A stretch of DNA of 64,000 bases from Mobula hypostoma (lineage: Eukaryota): the NCBI RefSeq assembly GCF_963921235.1, contig NC_086097.1, positions 111,726,001 to 111,790,000 of the forward strand, read 5' to 3'. The position numbers and the translations under genes were made by a program. This document shows positions 29,548 through 42,484 of the stretch, in pieces (position 1 is the first letter of the stretch; every line of letters starts with the position of its first letter). The notes beneath the pieces were generated by a model. The model did no database searches. It saw nothing but the letters and a program-made list of their open reading frames with translations, and was not told the origin of the DNA.

Positions 29548-30319
29548 CTAAAAACATTTTTGAAAACAATACTCTTAGCTACAGCAGCTACCATGAATGC
29601 TGTAAAGCTAACTTCCTTGAGCACATAAAACCTTTCAACCAGAAACACATCAGTTACTGATATGCTAAATTGTACTATCCATCTGGTCAGCAAGCTTTCT
29701 TGAACTAAGCAACTTAAGCTTCAGTTTGTCTGTTTGGAACAACCTGTGATAAACAAGTCATTGTCTTATACTGCATCTTGAGCAATAATAAAGCAGATAC
29801 AGTGAGCTAGCAGCTGCTTTTGCAGACAGAGCATCTTCTACATTTTCTACAATAGCACCTTCTATTTACAAAGTTGTGTTTTTAACTTCAAGCTGATTAA
29901 TGCTTTTTATTTACATTTCAAGAACTGTAGATTGACTTCCTTTATAACCAGAAACTAAACAAACTGTTAGTTGGAAGTTTACTTACATTTGTTTCATCTT
30001 ACAAGTGGTGAGTGTGTTTAGAAAGTAAGGTTAGCAGAAATGAGATCTCCTGTCCCAGGTCAGTGAATATCCATCACACTGGTATACCCTCTGGTGAGCA
30101 GATTGCAAGACAATTCATGCTCAATAAAGAAATAATATGTGGTTCAATCAAAAGCAGCACCTTAAATAATTACAGAATACTATCACAACTTAATCATGCC
30201 AACAGAAGCCCAGAAATATATAGCATACATGAATAAATAGAGTTTCCACAGATCAATCAGACTCCAAAGGAAAGATGGAACAAGATCAAGAGAATAATTG
30301 GCACTATTCTTCCACCTTA

Positions 30320-30802
30320 CATTCAGTGGCTACTTTATAATGTAGTGCCTGTACCTAGTAAATGGCCATTGAGTGTATGTTTGTGGTTTTCTGCTGCCAT
30401 AGCCCATTCACTTTAAGGTTGGACGTGTTTTGCATTCAGGGACCTTCCTGTCAGATTGAACTAGTCTGGCCATTCTCCTTTGACCACTCTCATTAACAAG
30501 ACGTTTTCACCCACAGAACTACTGCTCACTGGATGTTTTTTTTTTGTTTCACACCATTCTCTAAATTCTATTCACTGTTGTGTGTGCAAGTCCCAGCAGT
30601 TTCTAAAATACTCAAACCACCCCATCTGATCATTCCACAGTCAAAGTCAATTAGATCACATTTCTTCCCCATTTTGGTGTTTGGTCTGAACAACAACTGA
30701 ACTTCTTGACCACATTTGCATGCTTTTATATGCACTGAGTTGTTGCTACATGATTGGCTGATTGGAAATTTGCATAAACAAGGTATATAGGTCACTGAGT
30801 GT
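30320..30802. mobile_element. Non-autonomous Tc1-type MITE (family of 21084)
   Basis: CATTCAGTGGCTACTTTAT start, CACTGAGTGTA end; internal sequence matches 21084-21651. Confidence 0.8.
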
Positions 30803-31484
30803 ACTTATCCAGAAATTAGTACATACATGTAGCAGCAGAACCTCTGTAATCTGACACCTGTCAGATTTGACAGGCTACTACTTAAATCAAATCTGCTGTT
30901 CAGTCAAGAGTCAGATCTATGTTCCCTTTCTTTTGTCCCTCTTTCAGCCTCCTCAGTCCCAAACTTCTGCTGGTTTAGTTGCTCTTGGGCATGGCTTCTC
31001 CGCTCTCCAGGCCAATTCTCTCTACCAATCTGTATTCTCCATTGTAGCTGCTTCTTTGCTGGCCTGGAATTTCCAGTTACTACAGCACGCCTAATTATAA
31101 AATGCCAGATAACAATGCTATCACAGTATTAAACTATGTCATTTCACTTTTAAGACATTTTTAAATACATGATTTTAACTTGGGTATTGATCTGATTATT
31201 TTGGTTTAACATTCAGCACTATTGCTAGAATAATGACATAAAATATTGAATCTGCTCAGCAGATCTTACGGAATCTATGGAAAGAGCAAAATAGTTAATC
31301 CATTTCAATGATATTTCATTGGAACTTGTCATTTCTTGGTTATTCTTAGTTCTGGTCTGTAACCTCACATTTTGATAACCAATGTTTATTGATCTTGCAT
31401 GTGACAATTCACATTAGTGGGAAATTCCTGATCTCTTGCTTCCAGTGAAGTCTGGCTTTTGCAGAAAATACACCAGTTGTGGTG

Positions 31485-32001
31485 AAAAAAGCACAATTGC
31501 ACCTCTTTCACCTCAGACGGTTGAGGAAGTTTGGCATGGGGCCCCTAAATCCTAAGAACTTTCTACAGGGGCACAATTGAGAGCATCCTGACTGGTTGCA
31601 TCACTGCCTGGTATGGGAACTGTACTTCCCTCAGCTGCAGGATTCTGCAGAGATAGTGAACTTCCCATGATTCAGGACATTTACAAGACAGGTGTGTAAA
31701 AAAGGGCCCGAAGGATCATTGGGGACCCAAGTCACCCCAACCACAATCTATTCCAGCTGCTACCATCCAGGAAACAGTACCACCACATAAAAGCCAGGAC
31801 CATCAGGCTCTGGGACAGTTTCTTCCACCAGGCCATCAGAATGATTAACTCACGCTGATCTGAGTGTATTTTTATGTTACATTGACTGTTCTATTTATAT
31901 AAATTACTATGATTGCACATTGCATATTTAGACGGAGACGTAACATAAAGATTTTTACTCTGTATGTGAAGGATGTAAGAAATAAAGTCAATTCAATTCA
32001 A
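31485..32001 (+). mobile_element. Rex1/Babar LINE 3' fragment
   Basis: LRTFYRGTIESILTGCITAWYGNC codons at ~31552; ends AATAAAGTCAATTCAATTCAA. Confidence 0.85.
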
Positions 32002-32347
32002 TATTGGAGGGCTTCCAACGACTTGGCCCTTTCATCCTGTTGAAAGAACAGTTGCTGCCAGCTGGCAATTATGGAGGTGCATTACATGGGAATGTTTCTT
32101 CCCTGTAGTAATCAAGAATTATACAGAAATGAAGGCGAATATTTTGACTAATGGCTGCCTACTGTGCCTGTTCTTCTGTGAAATTGCACATTAAAGAATG
32201 TATGTATTCTGCCTCATGTATAAATCTCACTGATTTATCCATCTTCCTGCATCTCCTACAAAATTGTTAATTTAGTTTATATTACCTCAAGTATTCTTCA
32301 CACTTATAAACTGCAGCACTTAACACTCTCCTGAATCTAACTGATGT

Positions 32348-32612
32348 ATATTTATTTATTTATTGAGATACAGCAGGAATAGGCTCTTCCAGCCCTTCAA
32401 GCCATGCCACCCAGCAGTCCCCCAATTTAGTCCGAGCCGAATCACAGGACTGTTAACAACGACCTATTAACCTACCTACAGTACTCCTCTGGACTGTGGG
32501 AGTGTCCGGAGGAAACCCACAAGGTCGTGGGGAGAACATATGAACTCCTTACAGGTAGCGTAGGGAACTAAACTCGGGTTGCCTGTACAGTTAAGAATTG
32601 TGCTACCCCATG
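32348..32612 (-). mobile_element. V-SINE-like element
   Basis: - strand GTGGGTTTCCTCCGGACACTCCCACAGTCC (V-domain-like); (TATT)n tail. Confidence 0.6.
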
Positions 32613-33024
32613 CTACCCCACCTGTTAATATATTTTCCGAGGTTTACTCCTCATTGTTTCCCAAGTTAATTATTATTTTCATATTTTAACGTTGTCAACC
32701 AAGTCTGTAGCAAAGATTTTAAAAGCAATTTAAAACATCCATGTCCATGGTTTTTAAGATGAAATGCCTCTTTATTTTAGTTGCTGTCAAGCAAATGTTA
32801 ACACAAAGAGATATCAGTGAAAACCAAATAATTTAAATGTGACATAAGTTTGTAGCACAGTGACAGCCTGTTTCAGAGATAATTTAGAAGGTACAATGGT
32901 ACAATCATGGAATAAGTATAATAATACGTATCTATACCTTTACAATTGGACGAAAGTTCAACTCAGCATTAAAAAAGATATCATCTGAAATTCAGTTTCA
33001 TCATCAAATATACAGAGTGGCTGG

Positions 33025-33737
33025 GTACATACATCTATTGATGCTTCTGGACACATTTTCAGTGATGTTCCTGGAATCATCGGGTGTTTCGGGTCTTTCA
33101 ACATCATATACCCTCCTCCAGGTGACCCAGCCGGGGCTGATCAGACCCCAGCTTGTGTCTAGATGGCTAGTTACTTATGACTCCATGGCTCCCCTCTTTT
33201 GAGCCACAGCCATCTTGAGGCCCTCTCTGCCGCATTGGTGGTACTGCGGATGGCTCTCCTCTTCCTCTCTCCCTCAATGCCCAAATTGCTGAAGGTTCTG
33301 GCTAAAGAACGGGCTGAGAATCCCCTACAACCAGCCTCCACTGGGAGACACCTCACTCTCCATCCAGCCTGCTGGCAGTTGCTGACCAGTCCTGAGTACT
33401 TGGAGAGCTTCCTATCAAAGGCTTCTTCCAAGCGATCTTCCCATGGGACTGTCAGCTCCAGCAGCACCACTTGCTTAGTAGACAATGTCTGGTTGCAGGG
33501 TGGTGGCTTCATTATGGTTGGGGAACTTCAGCTGCCGTTCAAGGTCCACCAACAGCTGACAGTCCCTTGCAGATGTCTGCAGATGTTCCTTTGGCAGGGA
33601 TTGGCTGCTCCCCAGCTCTGACAAAGGCAATGGTCTGCTTGGAGGGTCGGGACCGCTTCGCCCACTCAACTCCTGTGCTGACGGCTTCAGCGATGGTCTT
33701 CAGGACCTGATCATGCCTCCACCTGTACCGTCCCTCA
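33025..33737 (-). mobile_element. Hero/R2-group non-LTR retrotransposon 3' end (restriction-like endonuclease + 3' UTR)
   Basis: TTLQPDIV (33475..33669) then KQVVLLELTVPWEDRLEEAFDRKLSKY...GWRVRCLPVEAGCRGF...AAERASRWLWLKR (33171..33512): PD..E.T-type RLE domain. Confidence 0.85.
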
Positions 33738-34467
33738 TATCATAGAAAATACTGTAACCTTTGATTTTTCTTGTCTATGGAAACTTCTGAAGATAAAGGG
33801 CATAACAATAGGAAGATTGCTGGGCTGCTAATAATCAGCTGCAGAATTCTCCTCCTCACTGGCCAGTTCTTTTCTAACTTCTCTGCCTGCACATTGACGC
33901 ACAGAAGTCAAGGGTGAGCAATTAGTCAGATTCTGGTACACTGCATACCCATACTGCCATTAGAGTTGCTGCGAAGGTGATTCGGTTAGGGTTAAGTCGG
34001 GGTTGTGGCCGGTTGCTGGGCGGTGTGGCCCAAAGGGACAGAAGGCCTATTCTACGCTGTAACTCAATAAATCAATAAGAGCAAAAGGCAGAGTTCTAAT
34101 ATACTGATGGAGGGGCCAGATGAGAACTACCAGAATGTTGCTGCCATAAATGCGGCAAAACTCGCACAGTACAATCCTCGCTGATTTGATTTGATGCAAA
34201 GTAACCAATTTCACTCTGTTTCGATGTATCTGTGTCAGAAAAAAATTAATCTTTATGCTCTCATTCATTTAAATGACGTCAATAGTCTTGAGTAAAAAGT
34301 CAGGTAACTTAAAAAGTAAAAAGTGGTTTACTTATTTTACCTTAATATTTTTGCATTATTTTTCCAACCTTTAAGATGTTCCAAATTAAATATGCAATTT
34401 AATGACAAGCAACTTTGTAGCATTTCTTAAAGTTAGCGATTATCGGAGATAATTAATGTTTTTTGTA

Positions 34468-34640
34468 ACACTCACAACACGCTGGAGGAACTCAGCAGGT
34501 CGGGCAGCATATGTGGAACGAAGGGTTCCGGCCCGAAACGTCAACTGATCTTTTCCACGGATGCTGCCCGACCTGCTGAGTTCCTCTGCCGTGTTATGAG
34601 TGTTGCTTTGACCCCAGCATCTGCAGATTATTTTGTGCTA
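34468..34640. mobile_element. Fold-back Penelope-terminus insertion with 13-bp TSD
   Basis: Inverted arms around CGAAGGGTTCCGGCCCGAAACGTCAACT (hammerhead 3' half); AATGTTTTTTGTA at 34455-34467 and 34641-34653. Confidence 0.85.
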
Positions 34641-34807
34641 AATGTTTTTTGTAGACAGTTCCTGCTCTGCTTTGCCTTGCCTCATGAGAAGACTCACAGG
34701 TGCTACCAGTTAGTTTGTCCTCTGAGTCATTTTAACCAGATATCCCTAAACTGAAATTTTATATGGTGGGACAATGACCAAAGCAGTCGTTGAGCATTGC
34801 TCATAAA

Positions 34808-35463
34808 AGGTTGACTCTGTGGTTAAGAAAGCATATGGTGCATTGGCCTTCATCAATCGTGGGATTGAGTTTAGGAGCTGAGAGGTAATGTTGCAGCTAT
34901 ATAGGACCCTGGGCAGACCTCACTTGGAGTACTGTGCTCAATTCTGGTCGCCTCACTATAGGAAGAACGTGGAAACCATAGAAAGGGTGCAGAGGAGATT
35001 TACAAGGATGTTGCCTGGATTGGGGAGTATGCCTTATGAGAATAGGTTGAGTGAACTCGGCCTTTTTTCCTTGGAGCGACAGAGGATGAGAGGTGACCTC
35101 AAAGAAGTGTACAAGATAATGAGAGGCATTGATCGTGTGGATTGTCAGAGGCTTTTTCCCAGGGCTGGAACGGCTAGCACAAGAGGGCACAGTTTTAAGG
35201 TGCTTGGAAATAGGTACAGAGGAGATGTCAGGGGTGAGTTTTTTTACTCAGAGAGTGGTGAGTGAGTGGAGTGGGCTGCTGGCGATGGTGGTGGAGCCGG
35301 ATAAGATAGGGTCTTTTAAGAGACTCCTGGACAGGTACATGGAGCTCAGAAAAATAGAGGGCTATGGGTAAACCTTGGTAATTTCGAAGGTAAGGACATG
35401 TTCGGCACAGCTTTGTGGGCCAAAGGGCCTGTATTGTGCTGTAGGTTTTCTATGTTTCTAATA
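34808..35463 (+). mobile_element. 5'-truncated CR1
   Basis: ORF 34888..35265 LYRTLGRPHLEYCAQFWSPHYRK; tail TTTCTATGTTTCTA. Confidence 0.93.
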
Positions 35464-35859
35464 CATTTAGCTGTCAATGTCAATGAAGGGATAACAAGCT
35501 ATGACATTCTGGGTAGGACATGGACACAGATGCTGTATTTTTTGAAGTGGTACATGTATAAGCTGTACCGATTTAAAACTTTAAAAGCTATCTTGGCTCT
35601 AGATGAACAAACATTATAAGAACAGTAATAGGTATTTATTTAATATTGTTCCTTAATGTGTATCATGCAGTGCTGAAGAGCAGAAAAAAGTCACTATACC
35701 AGTAATACATTCTCATATTTCCTCACAATTTTGAAAAAGGCTATTTAACCTATTTTGTCTATGCCAGCTCTCAGAACTAACCAATCCCATTTTCACTTAT
35801 ATGTTTATCAACATCCCCCAGTCCCCAATTCTGTAACCACTTATACCCGTCTATCAATC

Positions 35860-36800
35860 TACCAGCACAATCTACCCCACCAGCGCCCGCATCCAGCTCA
35901 TAATTCTCCAAAACTTCCACCACCTCCAACTGGATCCCACCACCAAACACATCCTTCCCTCCCCCCCCCACTTTCTGCTTTCCACAGGGATTGCTATCTA
36001 CACGACTCCCTTGTCCATTCATCCCTCCCCACTGATCTCCCTCCTGGCACTTATCCTTGCAAGCGGAACAGGTACTTCACCTGCCCCTACCCCTCCTCCC
36101 TCACTACCATTCAGGGCCCCAAACAGTCCTTTCAAGTGAGGTGACACTTCACCTGTGAGTCTGTTGGGGTCATATACCGTGTTCGGTGCTCCTGGTGTGG
36201 CCTCTTGTGAGACCTGACGTAGATTGGGAGACCGCTTCACCAAGCATCAAGGCTTCGTCTGCCAGAACAAGCAGGATCTCCCAGTGGCCACCCATTTTAA
36301 TTCCACTTCACAGTCTCATTCCAATACGTCCATCCATGGCCTCACCACTGTCGGGATAAGGCCACACTTAGGTTAGAGGAACAACACCTTATATTCCGTT
36401 TGGGTAGCCTCCAACCTGAAGGCATGAACATCGACTTCTCAAGCTTCCAGTAATGCTCCCACCCACCCCGCTTCACCATTTCCCATCCCCTTGTCCCTCT
36501 CTCATGTTACCTCCTTGCCCACCCATCGCCTCCCTCAGGCGCTCCTCCCCCTTTCTTCTTTCTTCCATGGCCTTCTGTCTCTCTCAACAATCAACTTCCC
36601 AGTTCTTTGCTTCATCCCTCCCGCTCCAAGTTTCACCTATCGCCTGGCATTCCTCTTTCCCCTCCCCCACCTTTCAAATCTACTCCTGGGCTTTTTTTTC
36701 TCCAGTCCAGCTGAAGGGTTTAGGTCCAAAATGTCGACTGTACTTTTCTCCATAGATGCTGCCTGGCCTGCTGAGTTCCTCCAGCATTTTGTGTGTGTGG
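35860..36800 (+). mobile_element. Older Penelope-like 3' fragment
   Basis: PPGTYPCKRNRYFTCPY (35755..36144), degenerate GIY-YIG region, decayed hammerhead at ~36704-36740. Confidence 0.85.
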
Positions 36801-36949
36801 CACAATATTGGGATCTGGGAAGAAAATGGAGCAGTTGAGGGAAATCCATGTGGTCACAGCAAGAACTAACTCACAATTACTTTTCTGGAATATCATTTGC
36901 CAACTATTTGCCCATTCTGCAAATATATAGTGGAGTACCATAGGAAATG

Positions 36950-37715
36950 GTACTGGGTCCATTGTTGTTTGTCATCTACATCAATGATATAATGTGTTAT
37001 CTGGATCAGCAGATTTGTGGATGACACTAAAGTTGGGGATGTAGTAGACAGCCAGGAAGACGATCAGAACTTGCAGCTGGAAAAAGGAGCCGAAAAATGG
37101 CAGATGGAATTTAATGCAGACAAGTGTGAGGTGTTGCACTTTGGTAGGACCAACCAGGGTAGATCTGACACAGTGAATGGCAGGGCACTGAGAAGTGTGA
37201 TAGAACAAAGGGATCTGGGAATATAGGTCCATAATTCATTGAAAGTAACATCACAGTAGATAGGTTTGTAAAGAAAGCTTTTGGCACTTTGGCCTTCATA
37301 AATCAATATATTGAGTACAGAAGGTGAGGTGTTATGTTGAAGTTGTACAAGACATTGGTGAGGCCTAATTTGGAGTGTTGTGTGTAGTATAAAAGAGTAT
37401 GGAGAAGATTTACAAGGATGTTGCCGAGATTGGAGGACCTGGTTTATGAGGAAAGATTGGATAGGATAGGGTAAATGCAAGTAGGCTTTTTCCACTGAAG
37501 TTTGGTGGGACGACAACTGGAGGTCATGCATCAAAGGTGAAAGGTGAAAAGTTTAAGGGGAATATGAGGGTTCTGAGAGTCTGGAACGAGCTGCCAACAC
37601 AAGTGGTGCATGCAAACTCGATTTCAACGTACATGGATGGTAGGGATTGATGAGAGTAGGCAGTGTAAATGGTTCGCCACAGATATATGGGCTGGAGGGC
37701 CTGTTTCTGTGCTAT
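36950..37715 (+). mobile_element. Degraded CR1 3' fragment
   Basis: DDTKVG...KWQMEFNADKCEVLHFG (37017..37226). Confidence 0.85.
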
Positions 37716-37907
37716 ACTTTGTTATCACATTCCCTTAGCATCTATTACTAAATCCTGTACTTTTCTATGACTCTGTGACTCTATATTGAAATTATATTGT
37801 TGCTGGTCTCGTCAGTTTTAAACATCTCTCCCAAATTTAATACCATTCAAAAATTTATAAATTGCATTTTTGATTTCAGACTCTAAATCATTAATGCAAT
37901 TTTAAAC

Positions 37908-38145
37908 TTTTTATTTAGAGGTATAGTATCCTAACAGGCTTTGGGCCCAGTGAGCCCAGGCTGCCCAGTTATGCCCAAATAGCTGTAAATCTTTGGAAAG
38001 TGGTAGGGAACCGGAGTACTTGGAGAAAACCCATGTAGTCACAGGGTGAATGTACAAGCTCCCCACAGACAGTGACAGAATTGAACTTGGGTTGCAGCTA
38101 CTACTGTTACAGCATGTGCCAACTGCAGTGCTACCATGCCACCCA
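37908..38145 (-). mobile_element. V-SINE-like element
   Basis: - strand GGGTGGCATGGTAGCAC head and GGGTTTTCTCCAAGTACTCCGGTTCCCTACCAC V-domain-like core. Confidence 0.6.
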
Positions 38146-38457
38146 CTAATTTTGAGCAGCAGTGTTCCTAATACTGACCCATGAAACACCAAATCCCTGC
38201 GTCCTCAATGCAAGATGACCACCTTTTCCACCCCCTTTCTGTCCCAAAGCCGGCCAGCAATCCATTCTGCCCCTTAACCCCCAATTTAGTATTCCCTTCC
38301 TTTAATCAGTAGAGCTCTGTGGCATTGCATTTTTGGAACCTGGATGAATTACACAGACTGCATTACTGTCTACTCTCTCAGTTACCTCTTCAAAAAAATC
38401 AATCACCAGAAAGAATTTGTCCATTTTCTCTTTTGGTAATGACACAGGCATTGAATA

Positions 38458-39005
38458 TACTCAGGGGCCAGTTTATTAGGTACACCCGTACACCTGCTCA
38501 TTACTGCAAATATCTAATCAGCCAATCATGTGGCAGCAACTCAATGCATAAAAGCATGCAGACATGATCAGGAGGTTCAGTTGTTGTTCAGACCAAACAT
38601 CAAAATGGGGAAGAAATGTGACCCAAGTGACTTTGACCATGGAATGATTGTTGGTGCCAGATGGGGTGATTTGGGTGTCTTAGAAACTTCTGGTATTTTC
38701 ATGCACAGAACTTACAGAGTATGGAATGAGAAAAAAAAATCCAGTGGCTGGCATGTCTGTGGGTGAAAATACCTTGTTAATGAGAGAGATCAGAGAAGAT
38801 TGCCTAGAATGGTTCAAGCTGACAGGAAGGTGACAGTAACTCAAATAACCACATGTTACAACAGTGGTGTGCAGATGAGCATCTCTGAATACACAACATG
38901 TCAAACCTTGAAGTGGATGGGTTACAGCAGCAGAAGACCATGAACATACACTCAATGGCCACTTTATTAGATACAGGAGGTATCTAATAAAGTGGCCACT
39001 GAGTG
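38458..39005. mobile_element. Non-autonomous Tc1-type MITE (family of 21084, opposite orientation)
   Basis: Termini TACTCAGGGGCCAGTTTATTAG / CTAATAAAGTGGCCACTGAGTG-TA. Confidence 0.85.
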
Positions 39006-39298
39006 TAGATCTATAGTTTTGTATCCCATTAAAGCATAAGAATTAGAAATGTACAAAATGCAGCTTCTGGTGCTATTTTTGTGCTGATAACAATGATCTC
39101 CAGTTGACTCTTTTCAACAGTAGCTCCATTGGGTTCCTGATTTGACACAATAAATTTTTAAACCGGGTGTACAGTAATATAACTGGTTTAAAGTGGATAA
39201 ACTGCAGGCAAACAGCTGGCGGTTTGAACCACTGATTCAGAGGCGTGAGTTTGAAGCTGACCAGCTTAGAAGTTTAGATTCCTGTGTAATTAAACGTG

Positions 39299-39899
39299 CC
39301 CGCTAGAGAAAGCAGGATCTCCCAGTGGCCACACATTTTAATTTCACGTCCCATTCCCATTCTGATATGTCTATCCACAGCCTCCTCTACTGTCAAGATG
39401 AAGCCACACTCAGGTTGAAGGAACAACACCTTATATTCCGTCTGGGTAGCCTCCAACCTGATGGCATGAACATTGACTTCTCTAACTTCCGCTAATGCCC
39501 CACCTCCCCCTCGTATCCCATCCGTTATTTATTTATTTATTATTAATTTTTTCCCTCTCTCCTTTTTCTCCCTCTGTCCCTCTCACTATACTCCTTGCCC
39601 ATCCTCTGGGCTTCCCCTTCCCCCTTTCTTTCTCCCTTGGCCTCCCGTCCCATGATCCTCTCCCTTCTCCAGCCTCATATCCCTTTTGCCAATCAACTTT
39701 CCAGCTCTTAGCTCCATCCCACCCCCTCCTGTCTTCTCCTATCATTTCAGATCTCCCCCTCCCCCTCACACTTTTAAATCTCTTACGAGCTCTTCTTTCA
39801 GTTAGTCTTGGCGAAGGGTCTCAGCCCGAAACGTGGACTGTACCTCCTCCTAGAGATGCTGGCTGGCCTGCTGCGTTCACCAGCATTTTGTGTGCGTGT
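39299..39899 (+). mobile_element. 5'-truncated Penelope-like copy with ~12-bp TSD
   Basis: RKQDLPVATHFN..QPDGMNIDFSNFR codons; decayed hammerhead 39804-39839; TAATTAAA(C/T)GTG at 39287-39298 and 39900-39911. Confidence 0.88.
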
Positions 39900-42484
39900 T
39901 AATTAAATGTGGATTTTTTTTCAAAAAAAGAACTAGCTTGTAAATACAAAGCCTCCCAATTGTCATTAAAAATGTCTAGTCTTCTTTCAGAAAAGGTAAT
40001 CTATCATCCATACATAGATTTGACATATATATCACTGATGCAAGACCCATGACTGTGGTTGACCCTTAACTACCTTCTCGGGGAATTGAGGGGTAGACAT
40101 TATCTATTGAAATAGCGATCTATATCCATCTCTGTGAATAGATAAACAGACAACAGTCCATATTCCATCTCTGCATGAAATCTATATATTTCAGTAATTC
40201 ACATCTGGCCTCTGTTCTGCTCTACCTCTGTTTGTGCTCATGTGTTTTCATTTTACTGAATAGAATACACCATCCTCTCTACTTTTCTACATTTCATACC
40301 TCTAAAAAACATTGCCAAACTCTATTTTACAATTGTTCTTTCACTAATCCTCCCCTCCTCTTCTATTGTTTGGTCTCTCTTGTGGAAGATTTAAAAAAAT
40401 GCACTAAATACGTTCAAGTTTTTTTCTGTTCTTTAATCAACATCGGTTATTTTGCATTAATAGAATTTCATAAGTGTAGAAGCCATGCATCTATTCACTA
40501 CTTGCTTTGTATCCTGTGTCTTGGTTTATTATGTTTATTATGGTAACTAGTCACATGAGTGGGGGCGTGGTAAAAGCGAAGGCAATCAGTTATGTCTTCA
40601 TGCTTTGCTCCAGGCAGTTTGTAGCTTGGGACTGGTGAATGTTTTGCTGATGCTCAATAACGTTCAATTGTGCTTAACTTACACTTGGATATGCTGAAGT
40701 TTCATCACTTCAAGATTGTATGTTTGCTAATTGTTAATAAAGGGTCAAGTAAAGGATTCAACTTTTGGAGCAATCATTGGAGCTGGGGGCGTGTCAAGCA
40801 AGTATATCAAATCCGTAGGTTGAAGGCAGCTACAATTGTTTTGCTTTTGGTTTTGCCGTTACAATAAGGTTAAATTCGTAACAACAATTACAGTTTACAT
40901 TTATATAATTTCCTTGACATAATACAAAGGTTCCAAGGCAGTTCACGTAAGAGTTAGTAGACAAACCCAACACCCCACCAAAGAAGGAGATTTTAAGAGA
41001 GCTCATCAATGCAGATGCACAAGGAATGTTTTGAAGCAAGAGAGAGTTGTAAAATGATACAGAGTTTTAAAAAGAGACTTTCACAGGATTAGCAATTGAA
41101 GGCATTAGCTAAATTCGGGTAAAGAAAATTAGGAATGCATGAGAAACTAGAAATAAATGAAGGAAAATGCCTCAGAGCATTTAAGTGCCGGACACAATTA
41201 AGGACATCAAAAGAGGTGATGTAATTGAGGTATTTGAACATAATGATGAGAAAATGTAAGCATTACCAGACTTCAAGACAGTGAAGCTCGTGGGCAAAGT
41301 GAATACAGGAGGTGGAGGAAGTTTGAAAATAGACCTGGATGCTTGAGCTGAGGGGGAATTAGTGTTCCACAAGTCTTCCTTTCTCTCCTTCTACATGCCT
41401 CAATTATAAAGCTCAGATCCCATGTGCTTTTTAAACTCCTTTCTCCACCTGTGCACATAAACCCCTAGATCTCACTTTTGTTGGAATTGTGCTCTGTATA
41501 CCCAAGTCCACATCATTAATGCATGTTGAGAAAAGCAGCAATTTAGTACAGAACCACTTCTCCATAACATGAGATACAATTTCTCAATACTCTTGTTTCA
41601 TGCTGCTTAACTGTTTACTTTCCACACTTTGTTAATCTATGCTTAAATTATTATCATGAGCCTCGGATGTGGCACTTTTTCAGATTCCTGTTAGAAGTTT
41701 ACATTTACCACACCAACTAAATGTTCCTTATTTACTCTCTCTGTTACTTAATCAAAACACCTTTTTAAAATATTAAATGCCACTTCCCTTAATTCATCCT
41801 AGCTTTCTCTAAGCGGCCAACAATATAGAAGTGATAGTTAATTCTGATCCTGATTATTGTTTCAGGAGTTTTCCTCACCACAGACACTATATATTGCCAG
41901 GTCTGTACTTTGTAAGTACATCCCTGCTAATGATTGCTATTGTCCATTCTTCAATCTCCTCCCCTGAATACATGGATGTTTGACTGATCATGGCCAGGGT
42001 TTCTACTATTTCCTTCCTTCCCTCAAAAACTTGGGATTTATCACTTTAAGTACAGCTAGCTTTTCTATCTTTATTTCTAATTTTTTGACCTATCAGAATC
42101 TCAACCACATATTCCTTTGAGGCTCAAGCAGTCTTCATCCTTCTGAGAGGGATGTAAAGAACTCATTCATGTATTCTCCCAGCTATTCCCTTTGCCTCCA
42201 TGAATAGATTTCTTTCTTAGTCTCTGATCAACAATTTCTTTTCCAACCCCACCTCCTCCCTCTCTTACAACCCTTTTCCTGTTCACATGTACACATACTA
42301 CTTTTGAATATTTCTATATTCACTGACATTCTTTTCTCATTCTCACTTTTCTTCCCGCATTTCTTTTCTCTTATTTCTGCTTTGAAGATTTTGTAATTTT
42401 TTTGTAATTAGTTTAATTATCATTTTCATACATATTTCTTTATCTCTAAAAAGTTCTAAGTATACTTATTATCAAAATCCATAT

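Follow-up and report, generated by a model that had tools for sequence, protein, structure and literature searches.

The 5′ ribozymes of R2 elements have an HDV-like fold. They lie at the 5′ end of the element, free it from the host co-transcript by self-cleavage and set its true end (PMC7650587, PMC13580325). In the excerpts of the cited papers on which the following comparison draws, Penelope-like elements (PMC11167929) contain hammerheads of type I (bioRxiv 2026.07.22.740005) and a GIY-YIG endonuclease, and they show partial-tandem copies and an internal start of reverse transcription. Non-LTR retrozymes are non-coding tandems of 170-400-nt units bounded by type I hammerheads; the monomers released by double cleavage are closed into circles, in vitro chiefly through an RtcB-type ligase, and retrozyme RNA circles have been demonstrated (PMC7229834). 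In type-SGC hammerheads (HRIMA-1 and variants), the blocks follow the order cleavage site, GAAA, CUGAnGA; the linker between stems I and II is short, the core is a double pseudoknot, and an extra helix joins the outer sides of stems I and II. Their stem II is formed by the strand after CUGAnGA, and the published scheme treats this strand and the block as inseparable. Type-SGC RNAs cleave in vitro at 0.007-0.13 per minute and come from metatranscriptomes and metagenomes of unknown hosts, with none found in the genome of a known organism (Eckert et al. 2023, PMC10085705). Short insertions into the hammerhead core have been described near C3, after A6 and at U13a, and the passages used here contain none at A9/10.1 (Perreault et al. 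2011, PMC3088659).

The window, the whole 64,000-nucleotide stretch of Mobula hypostoma DNA analysed here, contains a 5′-truncated copy of a Hero-type non-LTR retrotransposon on the minus strand. Longer copies in the same genome have a single ORF that encodes an RT domain (Pfam RVT_1, E 5e-15), then a CCHC motif and a PD-type (PD..D) endonuclease. The best solved relatives of this ORF are R2 proteins, and the Tetraodon polyprotein P0054, whose cluster includes accessions AAN12398.1 and BAC82599.1, is 65% identical to it. The Hero/R2-group assignment made in the initial annotation is supported. P0054 is presumably Zebulon/HEROTn, in which RT, CCHC motif and PD-type endonuclease likewise come in this order and target specificity is lacking. 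Bouneau et al. are said to have described Zebulon in 2003 with a partial-tandem structure. An endonuclease-region tree, without labelled outgroups or a reliable root, placed the element beside P0054. RT, CCHC motif and PD..D endonuclease are given as features of the Hero clade in the sections used of PMC3636483 and PMC2790886.

Copies of the family lack poly(A). A 23-letter tail pattern had 1358 exact matches in the genome, and motif divergence within the family was ~2% in a genome sample. The 3′ flanks were unrelated among 90 copies, which fits the absent target specificity of the Hero clade; regular target-site duplications were sought, and a duplication of at least 7 nt was found in 2 of 64 cases only. 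Older Hero families of the same genome also carry the motif described below. Elements of several bony fishes (proteins P0002-P0014) show 80-85% protein identity to the family, and the UTR at locus L066 is nearly identical to that of the family. The remaining repeats of the window, we assume, resemble shark and ray repeats; if so, the fish-like family protein together with the L066 UTR suggests horizontal transfer. Two regions of the window with long inverted repeats and sub-threshold Rfam microRNA matches (34472-34599 and 38940-39014) are probably ordinary repeats.

The features of the copy, from its 5′ to its 3′ end, are as follows.

33020..33737, minus strand: Hero-type non-LTR retrotransposon copy, 5′-truncated (end of the endonuclease region plus 3′ UTR); extent of homology
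33171..33527, minus strand: last part of the decayed ORF that is still open (restriction-like endonuclease region), ending with the stop at 33173-33171
33154..33163, minus strand: P1 5′ strand; its partner follows the CUGA block, and the window copy has one mismatch
33129..33153, minus strand: P2 hairpin between P1 and stem II, predicted to be stacked at the four-way junction
33124..33128, minus strand: 5′ strand of the true stem II (10.1-10.5), which lies upstream of the strand with the cleavage site
33117..33122, minus strand: P4 5′ strand, the distal stem III arm past the kink-turn
33114..33116, minus strand: non-bulged strand of the kink-turn (tandem G.A pairs); signature in 33 of 43 motifs
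33107..33113, minus strand: 5′ strand of stem III, followed by H17, the cleavage base, at 33107
33100..33106, minus strand: stem I 5′ strand
33091..33099, minus strand: short linker and stem II 3′ strand (11.5-11.1)
33082..33090, minus strand: G12-A13-A14 and stem III 3′ strand (A15.1 at 33087)
33070..33081, minus strand: bulged strand of the kink-turn and P4 3′ strand
33063..33069, minus strand: stem I 3′ strand
33056..33062, minus strand: C3-A9 core block; 33057 (G8) is A in the window copy
33046..33055, minus strand: P1 3′ strand, immediately after A9; previously annotated as stem II
33020..33045, minus strand: terminal hairpin and tail, end point of family insertions; putative start of reverse transcription

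The cut site is predicted between 33107 and 33106. The initial annotation had read a candidate hammerhead on the minus strand at 33113-33050, just past the ORF stop, and much of its description agrees with ours: stem I (33106-33100 with 33069-33063), stem III (33113-33108 with 33087-33082), GAAA (33090-33087), the CUGA-like block (33062-33056) and a further helix (33122-33117 with 33075-33070) lie where it placed them, and the core has the non-circular strand order cleavage, GAAA, CUGA that it reported. It did not include P1 or P2, and it missed both the type-SGC hammerheads already in print and the fact that full-length copies are terminally redundant.

Hammerhead G8 is the general-acid position. 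Position 33109 is A in the window copy and G in the family. In an unselected genome sample of 88 motif-covering copies, CTGAAGA was found in 80 and CTGAAAA in none, and 85 had G at 16.2. Because G8A is absent from all and G16.2A from nearly all unselected copies, the two changes represent decay of the window copy; they have probably left this copy catalytically dead, in line with the first reading. The consensus predicted there was correct for CTGANGA and failed for GGGTGTA, which occurred in 3 of the 88 copies vs. 72 with GGTTGTA. These 72 copies have a U.C mismatch at the fourth stem III pair, and the dominant subfamily has spread with it.

An Rfam scan of positions 30000-40000 (E ≤ 10) gave 16 matches, none of them at the motif and none to a hammerhead. 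This result, together with the loss of G8 in the window copy, might be taken to indicate a chance resemblance to a hammerhead within a structured UTR. However, Rfam models cannot match the permuted order, which accounts for the missing match, and the core letters recur in relatives at positions that were left unconstrained. The relatives were fetched by protein only, with an alignment of 34 proteins and no selection on the UTR; 318 metagenome loci were confirmed, and the best 80 of them, at 39-83% identity, were used. Viral contigs were also searched and gave no relative; genome contigs gave 5 loci, four of which end before the UTR and one of which lacks the motif. A stems-only descriptor, in which base pairs were scored and no base identity was used, matched in 69 of the 80 loci. 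GAA and CTGAnGA both occupied their exact unconstrained slots in 37 of these 69 (34 of 46 among loci scoring at least 18), and chance expectation is ~4e-6 per locus by our own arithmetic.

A core-anchored parse, which allowed one mismatch per block and left H17 and 10.1 out of its criteria, accepted 54 of the 80 loci and yielded 43 non-redundant motifs. U4, G5, A6, G8, A9, A13, A14 and A15.1 were present in 43/43 motifs, C3 in 42, G12 in 41 and U16.1 in 42, and N7 was free; the motif sequences are related, not independent, and these conservation counts are not probabilities. H17 was C in 17, U in 14, A in 12 and G in none of the 43, so that the NUH cleavage triplet rule is kept; a redundant copy, L138, has G at position 17. 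Position 10.1 was G in 41/43 motifs, and the 10.1-11.1 pair that closes stem II was G-C in 35/43 and G-U in 4/43. When the 26 unparsed loci were examined by eye, 13 were on contigs that end before or inside the motif, 6 had a decayed or partly deleted motif, 2 stopped short of the C-terminus, and 5 had a full UTR without the motif. Four of these five (L106, L118, L120 and L129) form one branch, whose UTRs contain repeated GGATTA/TAATCC words; this branch may use another structure.

Comparison of the motifs revealed six helices (I, II, III, P1, P2 and P4). The partner of the strand preceding GAAA lies upstream, at an almost constant distance of 14-15 nt from stem III, and this upstream stem II shows many compensatory changes across motifs. 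The strand following CUGAnGA pairs with the P1 strand, which lies still farther upstream than the stem II strand, and the P2 hairpin sits between P1 and stem II. Because the strand following CUGAnGA pairs upstream in P1, not in stem II, the chain is broken between A9 and G10.1. Where the core, P1, P2 and stem II meet, no base was left unpaired in 24/43 motifs (0-2 in shuffled and 0-6 in swapped-strand controls). In a MI-APC analysis, the top 22 of 1431 column pairs were all predicted pairs, although some registers had been fitted, which favours the model. A structure-blind MAFFT alignment was made of 42 sequences, namely the window copy and 41 motifs (the other two of the 43, L119 and L133, have unsure boundaries and were omitted). 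On this alignment stem I was 96.9% paired, stem II 94.7%, stem III 89.5% and P4 87.6%, vs. 34-49% for slid controls; P1 and P2, which MAFFT misaligns, were 51-77% paired. Energy folding of four sequences (z -2.3 to -4.2) recovered the nested scaffold of P1, P2, P4 and III in three and only P2, P4 and III in the fourth, whose P1 strand was cut short. The pairing percentages and the stems-only recovery rule out chance resemblance, to which we assign a negligible probability. A hammerhead-core RNA that is real, clade-wide and strongly covarying, with the fold described here, is nearly certain from these comparisons.

K-turns have a sharp axial kink and bind proteins of the L7Ae family. A kink-turn signature, consisting of a 3-nt bulge and tandem G.A/A.G pairs, was found between stem III and P4 in 33/43 motifs, and some of the others had a plain 3-nt bulge by eye. 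In the branch of L123, L125, L128 and L137, a plain bulge in an otherwise paired helix replaces the kink-turn, which points to the bend, more than the G.A pairs, as the feature that matters. The linkers are short: 0-2 nt between stem II and P4, 0-5 nt between P4 and stem I, and 2-8 nt between stems I and II. P1 would stack on P2 in the four-way junction, so that stem II could still stack on the core, and the kink-turn would fold stem III back, bringing the distal ends of stem I, stem II and P4 together as a second junction. As deduced from the helices and linkers, the overall RNA is cage-like, with two junctions joined by three arms. Crossing stems had been anticipated by the first annotation, which called for a pseudoknotted or dimeric fold; on paper the dimer would be superfluous, since the kink-turn and the two extra junctions would close the topology in one molecule. 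The P2 loop (33136-33146 in the window, minus strand) is often a short palindrome in relatives (TGATCA, TGGCCA, TGTACA, GACGTC) and is a possible kissing-loop dimerisation site.

At the family level, the Hero RNA has a CUGAnGA and GAAA core with an A15.1-U16.1 pair and three covarying stems around it, with G10.1-C11.1 closing stem II, as in a hammerhead. The order cleavage site, GAAA, CUGA with crossing stems departs from the circular, pseudoknot-free arrangement of types I, II and III. The block order, core letters, short stem I-stem II linker and double-pseudoknot core are shared with type-SGC RNAs. In contrast to type SGC, the stem II 5′ strand of Hero lies upstream of the cleavage site and both conserved blocks; only Hero has a P1/P2 four-way junction at A9/G10.1 and a kink-turn arm that extends stem III. 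Instead of the extra helix of type SGC, Hero has P4, an extension of stem III past the kink-turn that is connected to stems I and II via 0-5 nt linkers. The Hero RNA also belongs to an autonomous animal retrotransposon, unlike type-SGC RNAs, none of which was found in the genomes of known organisms (PMC10085705). We infer that the Hero RNA works like a hammerhead, shares the SGC order and lacks two SGC features.

The motif might nevertheless be a plain type-SGC or dimeric hammerhead, with the strand following CUGAnGA as stem II, that forms the 3′ end of the element. In the window family, 4 of 5 pairs are possible between this strand and the one on the GAAA side, perhaps as a transient alternative pairing. 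However, this pairing, proposed previously as GTGTC/GACCC, was 54.8% on the MAFFT alignment vs. 94.7% for the upstream partner, and across relatives it was 47-55% and did not covary; both strands have better covarying partners. The expectation that stems I-III covary was confirmed for stems I and III, and for the additional helix, and not for the proposed stem II (z -1.0 to 0.7). Copies end ~86 nt past the site, at odds also with the 3′-end processing suggested at first. A plain type-SGC or dimeric hammerhead is therefore very improbable.

Copy ends were analysed in the Mobula genome. Insertions stop ~86 nt past H17. At locus L033 the 5′ UTR of a full element directly abuts a tail segment that contains a whole ribozyme. 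Among copies chosen by their 5′ UTR (best 30 of 40 scored loci from 302 candidates), 28 of 30 were directly preceded by their own tail, and the other 2 stop at the junction. All 28 tail/5′ UTR junctions lacked added bases, with at most a one-base indel within the tail. There were 105 exact tail/5′ UTR junctions in the genome, of which 88 were inspected and 87 were usable. The upstream segment extended through the cleavage site in 62/87 and contained a whole second ribozyme in 53/87, where two ribozymes in direct repeat flank the unit. Segment starts fell within -4 to 0 of the cut in 3/87 and between +9 and +69 in 22/87. Of the first 30 inspected junctions, 27 continue for at least 500 nt into the element; the remaining 58 were viewed ~100 nt downstream. 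Paired tail matches lay ~3.62-3.64 kb apart in several places. In the metagenome collection, 14 of 53 loci with at least 400 nt downstream showed a head-to-tail run into a Hero N-terminus, a count in which assembly collapse is possible. L085 and L086 are two different Hero elements that follow one another head to tail on one contig, and each carries a motif version of its own. Contigs from 4 of 24 sequencing runs included none counted as bridging the junction, a result that has no bearing on expression.

A pile-up of copies at the cut was sought in four ways in this genome and was not found. Copy boundaries within -6 to +8 of the cut numbered 0/89 on the first pass and 3/87 on the second. By eye, 1 of 30 inspected (from 123 matches at the site) was a true truncation, as compared with 0/30 at +3 (30 of 31 inspected) and 1/30 at -3. 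Boundaries inside the last ~87 nt were present in 24/87 second-pass vs. 1/89 first-pass cases; such short second-pass boundaries also fit a template jump. No second-pass boundary (0/87) fell between -26 and -5 of the cleavage site. Run-on of the 3′ end into the 5′ UTR was clear only over two bases, with p=0.03 at the third and p=0.16 at the fourth. The junction and boundary data indicate that the scissile bond is intact on both passes and that no fixed 5′ end of the template lies at the junction. The Hero 5′ UTR itself is conserved in distant members as an array of small hairpins with purine-rich loops at ~21-nt spacing, followed by two longer hairpins before the ORF. These hairpins were seen at L033:2102-2270 and downstream of the motif in L070, L077, L078, L079, L085, L088, L103, L117, L126 and L140. 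This conserved UTR may serve to start translation without a cap or to bind protein, functions that a circular RNA would require.

Natural members of the Hero motif are likely to self-cleave. The ribozyme would cut read-through transcripts that overlap the tail into unit-length RNA, two ribozymes ~3.6 kb apart releasing one unit. The unit ends would re-form one ribozyme and then be joined, by self-ligation or by a host RtcB-type ligase. Within the circle, the element's reverse transcriptase would begin at the tail, ~86 nt beyond the cut, and copying of more than one round would renew the overlap for the next generation. We regard this model as a whole, in which the fold cleaves read-through RNA to unit length and the unit is closed to a circle and reverse transcribed, as evenly poised between right and wrong. 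The terminal redundancy fits a circular template, without proving one. A circle would explain the intact site on both passes and would renew the overlap, as in retrozymes on a small scale (PMC7229834). The joint proposal, that the replication of Hero LINEs, as autonomous protein-coding elements, passes through a circular RNA of 3.6 kb and that a hammerhead of new topology both cuts and closes it, with the core split at A9/G10.1 by a four-way junction and a two-junction cage that is locked by the kink-turn, holds the cut ends together and favours re-ligation, is tentative and carries somewhat less than even confidence. Several points count against the model as a whole: the absence of a pile-up at the cut, the short second-pass segments, a run-on that is firm for two bases, the stem III U.C mismatch in 72/88 copies, and the five full-UTR relatives without the motif. 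In the sections of the papers used, ribozyme mutants of a Penelope-like element left in vitro insertion unchanged (PMC11167929), and the published permutation scheme holds CUGAnGA and its stem II strand inseparable (PMC10085705).

An active ribozyme could also serve a linear template. The upstream copy would trim host read-through RNA and the downstream copy would stay uncut; the overlap would be renewed by a jump of the reverse transcriptase from 5′ end to 3′ end, or by tandem master arrays as in Penelope-like elements. R2 enzymes are capable of template jumping, and R2 jumps are untidy, whereas the 28/28 Hero junctions have no added bases. Upstream trimming would also cap the overlap at 87 nt, and 62/87 overlaps are longer; linear copying alone would shorten tandem arrays every generation. 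Nevertheless, the site is intact in all copies, second-pass lengths resemble a fresh start, and Penelope-like elements combine partial tandems, an internal RT start and the use of unprocessed RNA in vitro (PMC11167929). On balance a linear template appears somewhat unlikely.

The fold could instead be a hammerhead derivative that serves as a binding site for the element's protein and fixes where reverse transcription begins, cleaving rarely or never. R2-group 3′ UTRs bind the element protein, and the location of the Hero fold matches their protein-bound part. The break at A9/G10.1 may hinder an active core, the genome has no trace of cutting, and the stem III mismatch is tolerated. However, the positions required for chemistry are fixed, and N7 and H17 vary exactly as cleavage permits (G17 in 0/43, with G in the redundant L138), a pattern that protein binding alone would not predict. 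Such a binding role in place of cleavage is unlikely.

Compared with the described systems, in the excerpts cited, Hero shares with Penelope-like elements (PMC11167929) a hammerhead, partial-tandem copies and a presumed internal RT start, but is a LINE with a restriction-like endonuclease and a non-circular topology. It shares with retrozymes tandem units bounded by hammerheads; however, its unit is ~3.6 kb and encodes its own enzyme, and its RNA circle is a prediction (PMC7229834). As in R2, a self-cleaving RNA would free an R2-group element from its host co-transcript, but the Hero hammerhead core lies in the 3′ UTR and its site stays intact in copies (PMC7650587, PMC13580325). A literature search for a ribozyme in Hero elements found none, with subscription papers and Repbase outside its scope, and the main text of PMC10085705, in the parts used, has no mention of Hero or kink-turns. 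The cage-like split-core hammerhead topology was not found described in the literature searched. The partial-tandem layout is probably not new, given the reported description of Zebulon; its link to a ribozyme was not found described.

A covarying example that breaks the CUGAnGA block and recurs in most branches of a retrotransposon clade of animals would broaden the rules for hammerheads, a much-studied ribozyme, and would explain why standard searches missed it. The passages used of PMC10085705 left open how the far end of stem III reaches stems I and II, and the Hero kink-turn, which sits in a suitable place, offers a natural answer. The model also gives a testable account of how a LINE without a poly(A) tail or a fixed target frees its RNA, and of the overlap between its full-length copies and their own tails. 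Work is under way to engineer R2-group elements for gene insertion, so a circular template or a 3′ ribozyme, if true, would bear on template design.
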